This document shows positions 3,691-50,634 of a stretch of 53,179 nucleotides of DNA, piece after piece. The DNA comes from a virus (taxonomy: Duplodnaviria; Caudoviricetes), in the IMG/VR virus record IMGVR_UViG_3300032053_000105, positions 1 through 53,179 of that record. One strand, written 5' to 3'. How positions within the stretch are numbered: position 1 is the first letter of the stretch; each line of letters starts with the position of its first letter. The notes under the pieces are model-generated. The model had not been told where the DNA came from. It did not search any database and worked only from the letters and a program-made list of their open reading frames with translations. Both the position numbers and the translations under genes were made by a program.

Positions 3691-4601
3691 AAACTTTAGT
3701 TACGGGCGGATCGGGTTTTATAGGGAGTCATATTGTTGATAGATTAATCAAAGATGGCCATGAAGTGACTGTGATTGATAATCTTTCGACAGGCAAGTTT
3801 AAAAATTTAGAGAAATCTATTGCTGACATAATTTTTATTAATGGTGATATTAGGGATTTAGATTTACTAATGGACAAATTTAAAGGGATTGATGTAGTCT
3901 TCCACACCGCCGCCAAAGCGAGGGTTCAACCCTCTTTTACCGATCCTTTATTTTACTCGGACAATAATATCGGTGGGACGCTTAATGTCTTATGGGCGGC
4001 GAAGGAGAACAAAGTCAAGAGGGTGGTCTATTCCGCTTCGAGTTCCGCTTATGGTGATCAAGATAAGATGCCTTTAAAAGAAACGATGATCCCGAATCCT
4101 AAATCTCCTTATGCTCTGACAAAGTATGTAGGAGAATTAAATATGAAACTCTGGGCGGATTATTACGGCGTGGAAACTGTGTCTTTGCGTTACTTCAATG
4201 TTTACGGAAAAAGACAGACTGATTTAATTGATGGTGCTTATGCGACTGTAATTGGAGTATTTTTAGGACAAGTAACACAAAAGAAACCAATTACAATCGT
4301 TGGAGATGGGTTTCAAAGGCGTGATTTTACTTATATCGATGACATTACCGAGGCAAATATTAAGGCGGGTATGTCGCAAAATGTAGGTAAAGGTGAAGTT
4401 ATAAATATCGGTTATGGGAAAAATTATTCTATTTTAGAAGTTGCCGATTTAATTGGTGGCAAAGATTATCCTAAAAAGTTTCTGCCAGCGAGAAAAGAAC
4501 CAAAAAATACTCAAGCTGATAATACTTTGTGTCAGAAACTACTCAGCTTTAAACCAGAGATATCTTTAAAAGAAGGATTGAAATGTATAAGCCAGAAATA
4601 A
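3687..4601 (+). CDS. NAD-dependent nucleotide-sugar epimerase/dehydratase
   Basis: TGGSGFIG, SSSAYG, YALTK, LRYFNVYG, RDFTYI. Confidence 0.95.
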   Translation: MKTLVTGGSGFIGSHIVDRLIKDGHEVTVIDNLSTGKFKNLEKSIADIIFINGDIRDLDLLMDKFKGIDVVFHTAAKARVQPSFTDPLFYSDNNIGGTLNVLWAAKENKVKRVVYSASSSAYGDQDKMPLKETMIPNPKSPYALTKYVGELNMKLWADYYGVETVSLRYFNVYGKRQTDLIDGAYATVIGVFLGQVTQKKPITIVGDGFQRRDFTYIDDITEANIKAGMSQNVGKGEVINIGYGKNYSILEVADLIGGKDYPKKFLPARKEPKNTQADNTLCQKLLSFKPEISLKEGLKCISQK

Positions 4602-37031: not shown

Positions 37032-37069
37032 TTGAGGTCTTGAACCCGAATTATGTTCGGGTTCTTTTT
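37032..37069 (+). terminator. Promoter-proximal intrinsic terminator overlapping TTGAGGTCTTGAACCC
   Basis: GAACCCGAA/TTCGGGTTC + TTTTT. Confidence 0.8.
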
Positions 37070-37084
37070 ATGAAAGGACTATTT

Positions 37085-39667
37085 ATGAGTTTTATTGATG
37101 ATTTCTTCACTAAAAGGTTGAAACCGCAATTAAGTAAAGAAATACGGCCAAAGATTGAAAAACAAGTTGAACAGAAATTAGAAAAAAAGTTCTCAAAAAG
37201 TCTCGACAAGTTTGTCCGCAATCTTGATCCATTTTTGAATCGTAAAGATGCTGTTTTACCTGGGAATTGGAAAGTTGTCAATCCAGGTGATTTGGGTTTG
37301 GGAGCAAAAAGCAGTGAATATTTGAAACAATATATGGAGTGGGTCTATGCCAATGCTTCGGCGATTTCAGAAGCGGTAAGTGCGATTGAGTTTCAATTAT
37401 TCAAATATATCGATAGTGGCGATGAAGGGGAAGATGTCGAGGAAATACACGAACATGAACTTTTGGAAATACTTTATAAGGTTAATAACTATACTACAAA
37501 AACAGATTTTATTTATGCGATGCAACTTTATCTTACTCTAACCGGCGAAGCCCCTATCAGATTAAGGATGACTGGTAAAACGATTGATGAGTTGTGGCTT
37601 TTGAACCCTGCTTATTTTAAGGTTTTTGTCGGTAAGGACAATGAGGGTTTTGAAATGATTACAGGATATAAATATTCTGATCCGAGAACGCCAGGTAAAG
37701 ACATTGATTTGAAACCATGGGAAGTAATTTTTATTAAAACTCCCAATCCCGAAAATCAATGGCGAGGAATTGGTGTAATCGAGGCGGCGGCAAGAACGAT
37801 TGATATCTTGAATTATTCCGAGCAATACAATCTGCAATTCTTCAAAAACTCAGCCATTCCATATATTGCTCTTCATACCGACCAGAAGTTAAGTGATGCC
37901 ACCTTTGAACGATTGAAGGAGAATTTTAAGGCTGAACATCAGGGAGTTGATAATGCCTACAAGACTGCCATTTTGGAATCAGGTTTGAAGATTGAACGCT
38001 TACAAACTTCGGCAAAGGATATGGACTTTCTGGAACAGCAAAGATTTATGCGAGATAAATTGATGGCAATGTTTAAAACGACTAAAGTAGTTTTGGGAAT
38101 TACCGAGGATGTCAACCGAGCCAATGCCGAAGCCTCTGAATATGTCTTTATGAAACATTGTGTCAGACCAAAAATGAGAAGAATCTGCGACCAGTTGAAT
38201 GAATTTTTTGTACCGTTATTTGATACTTCTAAGAAATTGTTTCTGGATTTTGAAGACCCGATTACTCAGGATATGACAGAGAAATCTAAAGAATACGCTT
38301 TAGCAGTTGACAAATGGATGACCAAGAACGAGATCAGGCGTGAACTTGATTTGCCCGATATTGATGGCGGTGATGAGATCTGGCAACCTTTGATGCTGGC
38401 GCCAATGGGAGAAAAACCCGAACCGATTATCCAAGAAAAACCAGTTGAAGAAAAACCAACCGAAGAAGAAATTCAAAATCCCGATGAAGAAAAACCAAAA
38501 GAAGAATTACCAAAAACAGAAGAAGGTAAAGTCATTAACTATCGTGTCTTAAAAGTTAAAAATGATCCGAAAAAGAGATTACTTAAAAAATATAAAGAGC
38601 AAATTGCCAGACTCAAAAACAGAAATGTAACCATTAAACAATTAACCAAGAAACTCGAAACCCAAATTAATAAAGTGGCTAAAAGTTATGCGATTAAAAA
38701 ACGGGTAGTGATCGAAAAGAAATATAAAGATTATAAAACTTTTGATACTCAAGAATTCTTCTGGAAAAACCAGATTAAGATGTCTGAGCCTTATGAGAAT
38801 AAGATCAAATCTGAAATTAGATTAAAAATCTATAACGAGCAGAAAATAGATATCTTAAATAAATTACGAAAAGCGGGCAAAGGATTAAAGTTTATTATCC
38901 GAAAACCTCGAAAAGTAGTTGTTAAATCCGCTTCCGATTATATGTATGACAAAGATTTGTATGTTAAAGCGGGAATTGATCTCTTGACGCCAATAATGAA
39001 AGAACTGATCGAGCAACACGGTGAAGAGGCATTAGAACTTTTGGGAAGTGATGTTTCCTACGAGTTATTGAGTGAAGCCCGTAAATACCTCACCAGCGAG
39101 CCTTTGAAGGCCTCAAAAAGCCTAAATAAAACGATCTATGGCAAAGTAAGGAAATCTCTGGCTGATGGTTTGGAAAATGGCGAAGGGATTCCTAAACTCG
39201 CAAAGAGGATTGATAAAGTTTATTCAGGTTTGGAAGCCTATCAACTTAATGCAATTGCCCGCACTGAAACTTCAAGGGCGGTTAATTTTGCGACAGTGGA
39301 TGGTTACCGTCAGTCAGGTGTAGTGAATGGCAAAGAATGGTTGACAGCCTTTGATGAACGCACCTGTGATTGGTGCGAGGAAATGAACGGAAAAGTGATT
39401 GCTCTTGATGAAGATTATTTTAAAGAAGGCGATACAATGAAAGTTGGTAAAGAAAGTTTGGATATATCTTATGAAGATGTTGGAGAACCTCCTTTGCATG
39501 TTTCTTGCCGGTGTACCACTATCCCAGTTATTGGTAAAAGTTTCAAACCAAAGATCAAACGAACTAAAAAAGTTAATCCAAAAGAAAAAGCCAATAAACT
39601 TTTAGAGCAAATTGAAAAGGAGATAAATGGACCAGAAACCGGACAAGGAAAAGCTCAAAAAGTATAG
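37085..39667 (+). CDS. Portal protein fused to Mu gpF/SPP1 gp7-like minor head domain
   Basis: LTGEA, LWLLNP, KDMDFLE, NRANAE, MTKNEIR; then IARTET, KEWL, DERTC, PPLHVSCRC. Confidence 0.93.
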   Translation: MSFIDDFFTKRLKPQLSKEIRPKIEKQVEQKLEKKFSKSLDKFVRNLDPFLNRKDAVLPGNWKVVNPGDLGLGAKSSEYLKQYMEWVYANASAISEAVSAIEFQLFKYIDSGDEGEDVEEIHEHELLEILYKVNNYTTKTDFIYAMQLYLTLTGEAPIRLRMTGKTIDELWLLNPAYFKVFVGKDNEGFEMITGYKYSDPRTPGKDIDLKPWEVIFIKTPNPENQWRGIGVIEAAARTIDILNYSEQYNLQFFKNSAIPYIALHTDQKLSDATFERLKENFKAEHQGVDNAYKTAILESGLKIERLQTSAKDMDFLEQQRFMRDKLMAMFKTTKVVLGITEDVNRANAEASEYVFMKHCVRPKMRRICDQLNEFFVPLFDTSKKLFLDFEDPITQDMTEKSKEYALAVDKWMTKNEIRRELDLPDIDGGDEIWQPLMLAPMGEKPEPIIQEKPVEEKPTEEEIQNPDEEKPKEELPKTEEGKVINYRVLKVKNDPKKRLLKKYKEQIARLKNRNVTIKQLTKKLETQINKVAKSYAIKKRVVIEKKYKDYKTFDTQEFFWKNQIKMSEPYENKIKSEIRLKIYNEQKIDILNKLRKAGKGLKFIIRKPRKVVVKSASDYMYDKDLYVKAGIDLLTPIMKELIEQHGEEALELLGSDVSYELLSEARKYLTSEPLKASKSLNKTIYGKVRKSLADGLENGEGIPKLAKRIDKVYSGLEAYQLNAIARTETSRAVNFATVDGYRQSGVVNGKEWLTAFDERTCDWCEEMNGKVIALDEDYFKEGDTMKVGKESLDISYEDVGEPPLHVSCRCTTIPVIGKSFKPKIKRTKKVNPKEKANKLLEQIEKEINGPETGQGKAQKV

Positions 39668-44861: not shown

Positions 44862-45040
44862 AGGCAACCTACGAGTTCCTCTGTCCCCGCTGTAAGACTT
44901 CACTCTTCCGCACAGGCGGAACGCCCGAACGACTGGAAGTGCGTTGTCCTTTGTGCAGACACTGCTACATTGTCCTTGCACCGCAAGTGCTGGACACTCC
45001 CAATCCAAGGGGAGGCGACAATGAGTCCCAAGTGGCGTAA
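44858..45040 (+). CDS. Second Com-like zinc-ribbon protein
   Basis: CPRCKTSLF...LEVRCPLC; SD AGGAG. Confidence 0.65.
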   Translation: MKATYEFLCPRCKTSLFRTGGTPERLEVRCPLCRHCYIVLAPQVLDTPNPRGGDNESQVA

Positions 45041-45242
45041 GTGGTTGCGAAAGCGACGAGCGAGGAGGTGATCCACAATCTAACGGGGAGAGGGAACTGA
45101 GCGGCAGCTACTTATGTAGCACACAAACAAGCGAAGCCCCCTCCCCCATTCTTTACGAATAAAGCGGGATCGACCGCTTTAGAATATAAACAGGCTGGCG
45201 GGGAAACTGCCCTTGCCAGCCAGAAATTAATCAAGGAGTATT

Positions 45243-45431
45243 ATGTTAGAAAAAATTAAAACTCTTTTAGGATCAATCCGATTTTGGCTTATTACTATCG
45301 CTTGGTTGGGTGTGTATTTAGCAGTAGTTGAAAAGAGCGGTTTCCAACTTCCAGAATTATTTACTCAAATCGGTATTTGGCTTGGAAGTATTGCGACGGT
45401 AGGAACGGTTGACAAGTTTAGTAAAAAGTAG
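45243..45431 (+). CDS. Holin-like two-TM protein
   Basis: SIRFW, two TMs, basic C-terminus. Confidence 0.7.
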   Translation: MLEKIKTLLGSIRFWLITIAWLGVYLAVVEKSGFQLPELFTQIGIWLGSIATVGTVDKFSKK

Positions 45432-45593
45432 TCCAAAACCCTTGACAAAGACAGACCTTTTGTGTTAGTATATTGTCAAAGAGAGTTTTAGGTCTCTCTG
45501 AATCTAAACCGAAATAGAGTTCCGAGCATAGAAGCCAGAACTCTATTTTTGGTTAAATTCGTGCCTAAAATTAAATTATCTTCCCTAAAACTA

Positions 45594-45622
45594 TTTACAA
45601 ATAAAAAGGGATTTGTTATAAT
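45594..45622 (+). promoter_or_regulatory. Sigma70-type promoter with extended -10
   Basis: TTTACA-17nt-TATAAT, TGn. Confidence 0.7.
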
Positions 45623-45780
45623 GAATTTATGAAGAATAAAAAACTTGATTTACAATTGTATGAAAGTTTAGTATTCTCATCCAATAATGAGCCCGTGATT
45701 TATATCTGGGCTCATTTTGGTTCTCACAAATAAATTAGAGAAAAAGGAGTTTAAGGTAATCTCCAAAGAATAAAATACCT

Positions 45781-45896
45781 TCAGTAGACTAATAGTATAC
45801 GACCTGTGTCCTAATCCTATCGTGAGATAGAAAAAAAACCAGGCAACGGTTATTCCACCCAGATCGCAGAGGTGCGATAGTTAGTCTAAATACTGA
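45781..45896 (+). ncRNA. Putative multi-stem ncRNA
   Basis: TCAGTA/TACTGA and GACTAA/TTAGTC closing stems; CTATC-GTGA-GATAG; ATCGCA/TGCGAT. Confidence 0.5.
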
Positions 45897-46122
45897 TTTT
45901 TGATCTCCATTTTTAGACAGTTAATATTACCTATTAGTATTAGGTAAGAAGGGTGTATGACAATAGAAGAAGCTAAACAAATTCAATGGGAACGGTTTGC
46001 TAACGGTGAATTGTCTGTGGATAACTATATCAAGAATATTAATTTTATTTATAAAAGAGCGAAAAGAAATAAAGAAAATACGATAAATCGAGCCTAAATT
46101 TAAATTATCTTTCCCAAAACAC

Positions 46123-46151
46123 TGGACAAATAAAATCGTATAATATATAAT
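46123..46151 (+). promoter_or_regulatory. Probable early promoter
   Basis: TGGACA-17nt-TATAAT; upstream 29 nt nearly duplicates 45563-45591. Confidence 0.65.
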
Positions 46152-46165
46152 ATAATTAATATATA

Positions 46166-46887
46166 AAAGGTTGGGGATAACTTTGCTTTTTAACAATCCG
46201 GCAGGAAATTGAGAGAGAGGAGAAAATATGAAAGTCATTGCTTGCGAAAGCGTTTTGGTGAAAGCGGAAAAATTAACACACAGCGAAAGAGGGACACGAG
46301 AAGTTTGGATTTCAGTAAATGTAAATGATGTCAAAGAGGTAATATGAAATATGGAACTTGGACGACAATTGATGCCCCGACAAAAAAACAAGGTGAGGCT
46401 TTTGTATGGTTGAAAAAGCAATTTGATAAAATAGATGGCAAAGTGAGAATCCTGAATAATCCGCACGACTTCGGACCATATCAGAGTTTCGAGGTGGACT
46501 ATCCAGTAGATATGGAAAATGTAGAAGATGATGATGGCTCTAAAGATTATATTAAAGAAGAATGGTTAGTGAAAGAGGAATGGATTGAGAAGGCAAATAA
46601 TATAGAGACAGATTACAATAAAAAATTTAACAAATATTTGTGATAATATGAAAACATTTAAAGTTTCTATTAAAAGTCATTGCGATTATCCTACTTATGA
46701 AGATACTTGTCAGGCAAAAGATAAAGATGAAGCAATAGTAAAGTTTTTAAAAATAATTCTCAATTAAGCCACTCAGAGGCTTCTCTTAGCTGAGAGGCGA
46801 GAGAAGCCTTTAATCCTGCCGGGTTGTTAGAAAGTAAAGGGAGGGGGCGGATCAATCAACGCCATTCTAAAGGTTGGGGATAACTTT
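46166..46887 (+). repeat. 19-bp direct repeat AAAGGTTGGGGATAACTTT (46166-46184, 46869-46887) and 26-nt inverted repeat (46181-46206 / 46814-46839)
   Basis: Read directly. Confidence 0.9.
46344..46643 (+). CDS. Hypothetical acidic protein
   Basis: SD GAGG; NPHDFGPYQSFE. Confidence 0.75.
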   Translation: MKYGTWTTIDAPTKKQGEAFVWLKKQFDKIDGKVRILNNPHDFGPYQSFEVDYPVDMENVEDDDGSKDYIKEEWLVKEEWIEKANNIETDYNKKFNKYL

Positions 46888-46898
46888 TGAAGGAAAAT

Positions 46899-47057
46899 AT
46901 GAAACTTTATACATTTATAGGAATTAATATCCAAAATCATAATATAAAAGATATTGATCGATTTATTAAAGACAGTCGAGGAATATTTAGAAATAGAACT
47001 CATTTTTTCGAGGTAGCGGCGATGGAATATATAAAAAATAAAAAAGGAGGAGTATGA
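46899..47057 (+). CDS. Ribbon-helix-helix (CopG/Arc-like) regulator, putative (52 aa, not in track)
   Basis: IGINI strand, IKDIDRFI helix, FRNRTHFFEVAAMEYI helix. Confidence 0.55.
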   Translation: MKLYTFIGINIQNHNIKDIDRFIKDSRGIFRNRTHFFEVAAMEYIKNKKGGV

Positions 47058-47463
47058 ACATCGGATTGACGGTTTTCTTGACCGCTTTCGGTTTATTCGC
47101 AATTTGGGGGATTTGGAAGACGATTAAAGAGGAAAAGTTGGAGGACTATGCCAAATGGTATAGAGATACTCACGAAGTGTGACTGGTGCCATAAGGCGGT
47201 GAAAAGAATTGAAAAGTATGTTGATTTGCAAGGTGAGGTTCATCGAATATGTAAAGACTGTGAGGATTATGCTGATGAGACGAAAGTATTAGAGGCAAAT
47301 AATTTTTAAAAGGAGGGTTTATGTGGTCAAAAGCAAAAGAGATCTACTTCGGAAGAATTATATCTCAGGTCGATCAGAGACTGGTCGCCAAACATATTAT
47401 TAAGTATGTGGCTGGCGATCAAGCGGAAGAAATAGAAAAAGAATTAAATATTGACGAGGAAAA

Positions 47464-47919
47464 ATGAAAGTAAAAATTGTTGAACCAAAAGAGTGGACAA
47501 CTAAAACGGGAAAGAAAAAAGTACTTTTTAAAGACGGGAGTGGTAATATGCTTGATAGTTGGGATTTAGGGCTTTTAAAAATGGTAAATCAAGAAATTGA
47601 AGGAAACTTATCAAGCCGGGAATATAATGGAAAGACATATACGACCTTTACGCCATCAGAAGAAAAAAAGATTAAAGAGGAAATTCCAGAACCTATAAAA
47701 ACCCAAGAACCGTCAAAAGTACCATCGGAAGTTTGGGAAGCCAAAGATAAAAGAATGGTGAGAATGCATACCCAAAAAGTAGCCGGTGAGATAGTTAGTG
47801 ATTGGTTACAGGCAGATATGTGGACCAAAGAAACCAAAACCGCTGAAGAGATTGTTAAAAGAATTAAAGCGATTGCTCACGAATTAGAGGATGATGTATA
47901 TAGAAAAGAAATGGAATAA
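47464..47919 (+). CDS. Hypothetical protein, possible OB-fold ssDNA-binding/recombination protein
   Basis: Beta-rich N-terminus, linker, KDKRMVRMH helical domain. Confidence 0.5.
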   Translation: MKVKIVEPKEWTTKTGKKKVLFKDGSGNMLDSWDLGLLKMVNQEIEGNLSSREYNGKTYTTFTPSEEKKIKEEIPEPIKTQEPSKVPSEVWEAKDKRMVRMHTQKVAGEIVSDWLQADMWTKETKTAEEIVKRIKAIAHELEDDVYRKEME

Positions 47920-47920
47920 T

Positions 47921-48259
47921 ATGGAATACCAAGAATATACAATGCCCAAGATAACTAATCGTTTAATTGAATTGCCTGCTTCTATTGCTAAATCTGAATA
48001 TGATTGGGAAATAGAAAAGATTGAATTAGAAACATTAGAGGCAGATTTAATTAATGAAATTGATAATACTATTTACAAGAATGCCGAGATGCGTCAAGCA
48101 TTTATAAATAGTAATGCAGGATATTTGATACAAGCAAAAAAAGTAGTTAAATTGAGGGTTGAATATCATAAATTAATTAACGAAAAAGATTGTCTATTCG
48201 AGATTGCCCGAAACAAAAGAGCTGAAATGAAATCTCAAATAGATAGTATTAAGGAATAG
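47921..48259 (+). CDS. Coiled-coil hypothetical protein (UvsY-like possible)
   Basis: Helical; KNAEMRQAFI. Confidence 0.5.
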   Translation: MEYQEYTMPKITNRLIELPASIAKSEYDWEIEKIELETLEADLINEIDNTIYKNAEMRQAFINSNAGYLIQAKKVVKLRVEYHKLINEKDCLFEIARNKRAEMKSQIDSIKE

Positions 48260-49654: not shown

Positions 49655-49998
49655 AACTAAAATCATTAAGAAATAGAGCAGATAAAGCTTTTAAAGAAAA
49701 AGTATTAGAAATTAACAAGTATTATTGTGAGGTCTGCGGATCGGAAGCCTCAACTGCTCACCACTTCATTCCCCGCTCTCAAAGCAATGCTACGAGATAC
49801 TACCTGCCTAATGGAATAAGTATTTGCCAGAAATGCCACTTTCAGCATCATACCAAAGGCGATCCCTCAATCCACGCTGAACTTATCAAGCTGAAAGGCT
49901 GGGACTGGTATAACGATCTTCAGCTCAAACGCCAACAAATATGTAAAGTAAATAAGTCGTTTTATGAGAATATAATATCTAACTTTAAGGAGGAGTAA
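49651..49998 (+). CDS. HNH/NinG(Rap)-like endonuclease
   Basis: CEVCG, AHHFIPRS, NGISICQKCH. Confidence 0.85.
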   Translation: MKLKSLRNRADKAFKEKVLEINKYYCEVCGSEASTAHHFIPRSQSNATRYYLPNGISICQKCHFQHHTKGDPSIHAELIKLKGWDWYNDLQLKRQQICKVNKSFYENIISNFKEE

Positions 49999-50052
49999 AG
50001 CGAATAAAGCAGTTTACGATATAAGTAATATTCACTAACAAGGAGTTTTTCT

Positions 50053-50634
50053 CTGTACAAACTTCTGTGGCTACTTGCCGCTTCTCTGATTCTCGCTATG
50101 AGCATTACCGATAAAGCTCAAAGTAGCCCCAAGACACACGAGGTTCGACTGACCCTCAACCAAAATGTCGTCCAAGTAATAGCAATTAAAAAACCGCATT
50201 TCAAACTGACCAAAGATCGTTATGTAATTCAAAGGAGCAATCTTGAAACTCCCTTCATTCGTCCCGAAAAGGATCAACCAGTTAAAAGACAATCGGCTGT
50301 CAAGGCTGGAGTGGTTTCTCATCGGTCTGTCACTCGGAGTTTCAGTTACTCTCATGGCAGTATTACTGAGTATGCTCGGACACTTGTAGTTGAGAGGTGG
50401 GGCGAATCAAACTGGTATGCTTTTTACCAAATAGTCAATCACGAATCTGGCTGGAATCCTTACGCTGTTAATAGAAGTTCGAAAGCGTGTGGTTTATTCC
50501 AAGCCCTGCCCTGCTCAAAGATGGGAGGGATGGGGATAACGAATCAGCTAAACTGGGGAATAGGTTACATTGCTGGGCGTTACGGATCGCCCAATCAAGC
50601 GTGGGCGTTCTGGCAAGCACATCGATGGTATTAA
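50053..50634 (+). CDS. Exported lytic transglycosylase (SLT/lysozyme-like); probable CTG start
   Basis: HESGWNP, GLFQALP, YIAGRYGSP; SD AGGAG + CTG adds signal peptide. Confidence 0.82.
   Translation: MYKLLWLLAASLILAMSITDKAQSSPKTHEVRLTLNQNVVQVIAIKKPHFKLTKDRYVIQRSNLETPFIRPEKDQPVKRQSAVKAGVVSHRSVTRSFSYSHGSITEYARTLVVERWGESNWYAFYQIVNHESGWNPYAVNRSSKACGLFQALPCSKMGGMGITNQLNWGIGYIAGRYGSPNQAWAFWQAHRWY

Follow-up and report, generated by a model that had tools for sequence, protein, structure and literature searches.

The window, which is the whole 53,179-bp stretch of DNA analysed here, corresponds to an entire virus record (CheckV completeness 100%), and the sole sequencing run carrying the whole record is labelled as a sediment metagenome; none of the listed runs containing this DNA is registered as RNA. 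Every sizeable ORF lies on the + strand. PHROGs and Pfam scans recognised a siphovirus-like structural block, an M23 peptidase and several HNH endonucleases, many ORFs having no family match in these scans. The capsid and portal proteins share less than 31% identity with those of cultured phages, and a blastn search with positions 45500-47500 returned no match among 50,697 phage records. No tRNA was found. The 65 ORFs compared with PHROGs and the 36 compared with Pfam included no recognisable integrase, invertase, transposase, RNase III or RNA ligase.

About 20 kb of the record (2800-24200) is occupied by nucleotide-sugar, glycosyltransferase, methyltransferase, radical SAM, LicD and polysaccharide deacetylase genes, and nowhere in this record, rated complete, did the scans recognise a DNA polymerase, primase, helicase or integrase; such gene content is unusual for a 53-kb tailed phage. 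The order of the structural module is also unusual: the portal gene (37040-39667), which carries a fused head-morphogenesis domain, comes after the tail genes and far from the terminase (24530) and capsid (27491) genes.

The locus under study carries three small ORFs between two complementary stretches, called arms hereafter. Its features are:

46123-46151, + strand: sigma-70-like promoter TGGACA-17-TATAAT (11/12 matches), with an inferred start near 46158
46166-46184, + strand: copy 1 of the 19-nt direct repeat AAAGGTTGGGGATAACTTT, a small hairpin, its last 4 nt overlapping the 5′ arm
46181-46206, + strand: 5′ arm of the predicted long-range helix, 26 nt, in the 5′ UTR
46185-46195, + strand: boxA-like word GCTTTTTAACA, one mismatch (position 4, C to T) from GYTCTTTAANA
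46228-46347, + strand: ORF1, 39 aa, with AGGAG 5 nt upstream, its stop overlapping the ORF2 start (ATGA)
46344-46643, + strand: ORF2, 99 aa, conserved family
46648-46767, + strand: ORF3, 39 aa, beginning 4 nt past ORF2
46775-46811, + strand: strong 16-bp hairpin, 8 nt past the ORF3 stop and 2 nt ahead of the 3′ arm
46814-46839, + strand: 3′ arm of the predicted long-range helix, 26 nt, in the untranslated spacer between ORF3 and ORF4
46869-46887, + strand: copy 2 of the 19-nt direct repeat, 29 nt past the 3′ arm and directly before the ORF4 ribosome site
46899-47057, + strand: ORF4, 52 aa, the first gene past the helix

The original prediction placed a promoter about 30 nt before the 5′ arm and three small ORFs (46228, 46344, 46648) in the loop. 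Both statements were confirmed: the promoter is TGGACA-17-TATAAT, the 5′ arm begins 30 nt past its −10 hexamer and about 23 nt past the inferred start, and the three ORFs are all on the + strand. The promoter is a paralogue of another one at 45594-45622, the two lying in a 74-nt direct repeat with 74% identity (copies at 45556 and 46085). The cassette had also been called the first early genes; this is inexact, as two more promoter-like sites (45442, 45594) and two small ORFs (45629-45733, 45957-46097) precede it.

This upstream stretch has its own particularities. A promoter-like TTGACA-18-TAGTAT with a TG is followed by about 80 nt containing two hairpins (45442-45560), the second of which (45500-45560) has 23-nt arms and a T run at its end; right at the beginning of the early region, a small RNA or else a leader that is terminated could be made here. 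At 45594-45733, the TATAAT of the repeated promoter's first copy ends 6 nt before the ATG of a 34-aa ORF (45629), which makes translation of a leaderless mRNA possible. The next 220 nt (45734-45956) hold no listed + strand ORF of at least 25 aa; on the − strand of that stretch we observed a terminator-like hairpin with T8 (45862-45839) and a promoter-like site (45963-45936), and an antisense RNA some 100 nt long may be encoded there.

The 5′ arm ends 9 nt ahead of the ORF1 Shine-Dalgarno and 22 nt ahead of its start codon. A 12-nt repeat, GAAAATATGAAA, is found at 46222 and 46893, ahead of ORF1 and ORF4 respectively. On the other side of the cassette, the 46775-46811 hairpin has a weak U tract and was left unflagged in a terminator scan; it might nevertheless stop a share of the transcripts short of the 3′ arm. 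No promoter-like + strand site lies between this hairpin and ORF4, hence any RNA expressing ORF4 and beyond would have to carry both arms.

Among the enclosed genes, ORF2 has four database homologues (54-68% identity). An alignment-based search located copies of the gene at 3 viral and 7 metagenome loci, 9 of them distinct and 8 of these near full length; L045 is a partial copy. With 19 invariant columns in 13 sequences, ORF2 is, as judged by alignment, a real gene of a conserved family. Its structural model (pLDDT 87.1) consists of a beta-alpha-beta-beta unit and a long helix, and comparison with the PDB returned no chain at an E-value of 0.001 or better. ORF1 and ORF3 gave no family above threshold. 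None of the three ORFs looks like a mobility enzyme.

Pairing of the two untranslated arms

The arms lie 607 nt apart and are Watson-Crick complementary at 23/26 positions. The three other positions are G.T, T.G and T.G on the + strand, so the sense RNA has 26 pairs without a break; on the − strand the same positions are A.C mismatches. The 26-bp duplex of the original prediction (23 Watson-Crick and 3 G-U pairs) and its claim that all three departures are G-U on the + transcript were thus both borne out.

We then compared this pairing with chance. When Watson-Crick and G-U pairs are counted within 3 kb, the arm helix is the longest run in the whole 53-kb genome (26 pairs); the runner-up runs, of 21, 20 and 19 pairs, are G-U-rich, and the best run on the − strand has 20 pairs. 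In first-order Markov genomes, none of 61 reached 26 pairs (best runs 18-23), and the Watson-Crick pairs in a fully paired run were at most 19 in all 61 against 23 observed. The Watson-Crick count by itself, in 26-nt windows, was less discriminating: 23 was reached in 0/40 simulations, and since these gave 20-22 matches, the arms exceed chance only modestly when taken simply as a DNA repeat. Their pairing as a sense-strand RNA helix is far beyond chance. The 20-nt core of the arm has one other copy in the window, inverted and with 2 mismatches, and two matches were obtained in 0/100 shuffles. In the viral collection, a 21-mer arm pattern had 0 matches and a 16-mer arm core had 8, all chance.

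The direction of the departures was also considered. By our reasoning, neutral decay of a perfect repeat would yield a sense G-U with a chance of about 1/6 to 1/4 per substitution, and three of three with p of about 0.005-0.016, three pairs being a small sample.

Folding predictions agreed with a preference for the sense strand: the duplex energy is −41.2 kcal/mol for the sense and −28.6 for the antisense strand. The helix is present in both the minimum-energy and the centroid folds of 46158-46900, and the mean probability of its 26 pairs is 0.97-0.99 in transcripts 46158-46900, 46158-47500 and 45629-47500. Taken by itself, the 5′ leader folds weakly (−11.4 kcal/mol over 73 nt), so the 5′ arm should remain free until its partner is made. 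From these models we infer that the helix would form in vivo. The RNA-level character advanced in the original prediction is thus supported by the three sense-strand G-U pairs, the untranslated position of both arms and the high pairing probability. The helix is present in the sequence, non-random, sense-strand-favoured and located in untranslated RNA.

Stems at other loci carrying the 99-aa gene

Single-protein locus searches of viral contigs with ORF2, a 151-aa neighbour and the M23 peptidase returned no relative, and the genome collection contained none. The loci carrying the 99-aa gene have nothing else in common with the window and are not syntenic with it.

One of them, L043, carries at 1969-2339 a long-range stem of 26-28 nt around a DUF7249-like ORF, and a repeated leader motif, AAAGGATTGAGGTAA, ahead of two ORFs. 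Its stem is a 26-nt inverted repeat, 24/26 complementary, with one sense G-U and one A.G mismatch, and can be extended by a C-G and a U-G pair. The two strands lie in the spacers on either side of the DUF7249-like ORF, which is the next one after the 99-aa gene. This stem was found in the minimum-energy and centroid folds, and its 5′ arm begins about 35 nt after the end of a promoter-like site. As L043 shares only the 99-aa gene with the window, it is an independent analogue of the stem, and the layout of an arm, a ribosome site, small early ORFs and a second arm is found twice with unrelated arm sequences.

Other candidates were rejected. In L036, 19-pair and 18-pair runs both fall within large genes; immediately ahead of the 99-aa gene, this locus has a stable local hairpin (3899-3993, z = −4.5). 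Stem tops of the GGCAGG/CCTGCC type are common to the window, L036 and L038, but the resemblance is weak because GGCAGG occurs 22 times in the window. Scans of the whole records of three related viral contigs gave three candidates and no further clean analogue: G001 contains local hairpins only, a 21-pair run of G003 lies inside coding sequence, and G002, the record of L037, has a 21-pair stem (20 Watson-Crick, coding strand) around a 216-aa ORF (49895-50620), the 5′ arm of which is upstream of the promoter-like site of that ORF itself. The G002 stem is borderline against the null, and it could be a mobile gene.

DNA-level exchange and the boxA-like word

A 26-bp imperfect inverted repeat around about 600 bp is what invertible segments and miniature inverted-repeat elements generally look like. 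The arms might accordingly be DNA recombination sites, terminating a small transposable element or bordering a segment whose inversion would switch the cassette off. We consider this extremely improbable. The arm ends show no target duplication (the left flank ends with GATAA, the right one begins with GGAGG), and the 19-nt repeat overlaps the left arm yet sits 29 nt beyond the right one. A single arm pair is present in the window and none in the viral collection. Neither the PHROGs (65 ORFs) and Pfam (36 ORFs) scans nor those of the enclosed ORFs recognised a transposase, invertase or integrase, although the host could supply such an enzyme. The sense-strand G-U bias is likewise unexplained by recombination sites. 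The original prediction had named as its refutation arms behaving as transposon ends without G-U bias; we found neither target duplication nor extra copies in the window nor a transposase among the scanned ORFs, and the bias is present. Contigs of 4 runs over 45000-48000 listed no joint at the arms, their scrappy coverage being uninformative on inversion.

Modular exchange is another matter, as regulatory direct repeats ring the cassette: the 74-nt promoter repeat, the 19-nt repeat and the 12-nt repeat. Two copies of the 19-nt repeat were obtained in 0/100 shuffles. A 16-mer of this direct repeat had 33 matches, the longest stretch shared with the window being 26 bases (blastn), with no tblastx match. 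In run X3, a 277-nt contig matches the leader (46167-46212) with 5 differences and a 1393-nt contig matches the hairpin and most of the 3′ arm (46750-46834) with 4 differences, each continuing into unlike flanks; these low-depth contigs, compared by match coordinates and difference counts, suggest that leader and hairpin/arm pieces travel between contexts.

PeSLs, described in the cited report as composite terminator/promoter repeats mediating exchange in T4-type phages (PMC4122927), offer a parallel. As far as the cited sections go, they resemble the 74-nt and 19-nt direct repeats of the window and not its inverted arms, and they too are repeated promoter/leader motifs beside small early ORFs of no known function (PMC4122927, PMC2839356). 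PeSL-like character was found here for the direct repeats only, that is the 74-nt (promoter), 19-nt (small hairpin) and 12-nt ones, and not for the inverted arms.

Cassette exchange probably shaped the locus, and the 19-nt repeats suggest a DNA-level exchange that could be the origin of the arm arrangement. A stronger version would take arms and 19-nt repeats together as traces of such PeSL-like exchange and the RNA helix as a functionless by-product. The modest excess over chance of 23/26 as a plain DNA repeat is in its favour. However, it is direct and not inverted repeats that serve PeSL-type exchange, and this version leaves unexplained both the sense-strand pairing at all three mismatches and the equal geometry of L043 with a different sequence. 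We regard it as possible but unlikely.

The original prediction went further on the RNA side: a boxA in the 5′ arm would recruit NusB/NusE antitermination, the arms would be joined in the manner of an rrn leader, and RNase III would free a protected or circular mini-mRNA. The string itself was confirmed, since TGCTTTTTAACA (46184-46195) is one base from the 12-mer quoted, 30 nt past the −10 hexamer; its function as a boxA was not, the word having a mismatch at position 4 and occurring at chance level. One-mismatch copies of the quoted 12-mer number three in the window. The published consensus GYTCTTTAANA is gamma-proteobacterial (PMC5725501) and may not be that of the host. It has no exact occurrence in the window and 25 one-mismatch sites against 17.5 +/- 4.5 expected, with 7/100 shuffles reaching 25. 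Position 4 is the one broken here, and in the experiments cited C4T together with T6C abolishes suhB boxA function and Nus recruitment (PMC5725501).

The location of the word is a further difficulty. In the E. coli rrn leader, as the cited account presents it, boxA acts as a linear stretch, and it is boxC that becomes part of the RNase III helix (PMC8632103); in the phage the boxA-like word itself lies within the 26-bp helix and would be accessible only until the 3′ arm has been synthesised. Reading of the leader revealed neither a boxB hairpin nor a boxC, and Rfam models matched nothing, whether at gathering scores in the whole window or at up to E = 1 in 45300-47100. The stem of L043 is devoid of a boxA-like word. 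A 17-mer spanning the word and the arm had at least 120 genome matches in many phyla of bacteria and archaea; 80 of these were fetched, and none of the 40 loci scanned with Rfam had an rRNA gene beside it. Seven matches from Fibrobacteria have the same flanking sequence, read as one conserved gene. The 17-mer scan also chanced on L078, which contains at 739-982 a group I intron (RF00028, 119 bits) in an apparent tRNA gene of an uncultured gamma-proteobacterium.

Mimicry of an rrn leader is thus not upheld, given the broken consensus, the chance-level word, its position in the helix, the absence of an identified boxB or boxC in the leader and of a counterpart in L043. What speaks for it, besides the string and its distance from the −10 hexamer, is the proposal in the cited work that the rrn antitermination complex brings the leader strand to the partner lying downstream (PMC8632103). 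For the circular-RNA part, no RNA ligase was recognised among the scanned phage ORFs. Taken as a whole the proposal appears very improbable; a small probability is kept for boxA because the consensus is gamma-proteobacterial and may not apply to the host.

A putative RNase III site on the early transcript

The best reading, to which we give about even odds (roughly 0.5), is that the duplex between the 5′ UTR and the 3′ UTR of the cassette would be a site for host RNase III on the early transcript. RNase III sites of B. subtilis mRNAs, in the part of the survey cited, include long-range helices of 10-36 bp formed by stretches up to 505 nt apart (PMC11780869). Like these, the phage helix would join distant stretches of one mRNA, and its 26 bp are within their range; unlike them, it belongs to a phage early transcript, with its 5′ strand right after the start and three ORFs looped out, and its loop of 607 nt is slightly above the 505-nt maximum (PMC11780869). 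It also resembles the rrn stalks in having flanking complementary stretches with the 5′ strand in a leader soon after a promoter, but, by the description cited, differs from them in that the stem encloses translated mRNA, without a valid boxA and with the boxA-like word in the helix (PMC8632103). On the basis of this length and of the likeness to rrn stalks, the helix is taken as a probable RNase III site.

The following course of events can be proposed on sequence grounds. One early + strand transcript, starting near 46158, would carry both arms. Once the polymerase had passed 46839, the 5′ UTR arm would pair with the arm behind ORF3, and the resulting 26-bp helix would close a 607-nt loop holding ORF1-3 and the strong 3′ hairpin. 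Host RNase III would then cut the helix, and the three-gene cassette would be freed of its triphosphate leader and of the early genes downstream. The cassette message could in this way acquire its own fate, its 3′ end being guarded by the 46775-46811 hairpin and its new 5′ end lying near a strong ribosome site. Cutting and its consequences are what we infer from the arrangement, and the whole finding is a sequence-level prediction.

On the early polycistronic mRNA of T7, host RNase III cuts between genes and a hairpin is left at the 3′ ends. The T7 sites are local hairpins, like the 3899-3993 hairpin of L036, whereas the present helix is long-range.

The same duplex might act mainly without a cut by RNase III, closure of the 5′ UTR on the 3′ UTR limiting ribosome access to ORF1 or shielding the ends. 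The structural evidence is equal for closure and for cleavage. With the 5′ arm ending only 22 nt short of the start codon of ORF1, the helix could compete with a ribosome initiating there. Yet a 26-bp helix is unlikely to escape RNase III where the enzyme is present. The S. aureus icaR message is a precedent, in which the UTRs of one message pair and the pairing of the 3′ and 5′ UTRs can control translation (PMC3868564). According to the cited sections, however, the icaR pairing is short, covers the Shine-Dalgarno and also makes an RNase III substrate, whereas the phage helix has 26 bp, stops 9 nt before the Shine-Dalgarno and so leaves it free, and its transcript, unlike icaR, continues into further genes (PMC3868564). 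Closure free of cleavage is thus less likely for so long a helix, and we rate it distinctly unlikely.

Returning to RNase III cutting, long-range helices for this enzyme are already known in bacterial mRNAs, and the phage early case most likely adds a member to them. If the helix is cut in vivo, this class of sites would extend from bacterial mRNAs to viral takeover genes, and phages would use rRNA-style long-range stalks, beyond the local hairpins of the T7 type, on early polycistronic RNA. The early RNA would then be carved into units with separate fates. A bolder generalisation, which we hold to be a long shot, is that some uncultured phages package each earliest cassette as a closed-loop message. 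An arm near the promoter would be carried along, maybe with the aid of a degenerate boxA-like Nus site, and zipped to its partner behind the cassette, and RNase III would excise a self-contained early mRNA with duplex-protected ends, whose timing and stability would differ from those of the remaining early operon; if this were true, the same layout with a different sequence in L043 would represent a recurrent design of phage early regions. Finally, as the 99-aa family recurs in the early regions of several uncultured phages and matches no known fold, the cassette may give useful access to an early function as yet unknown.
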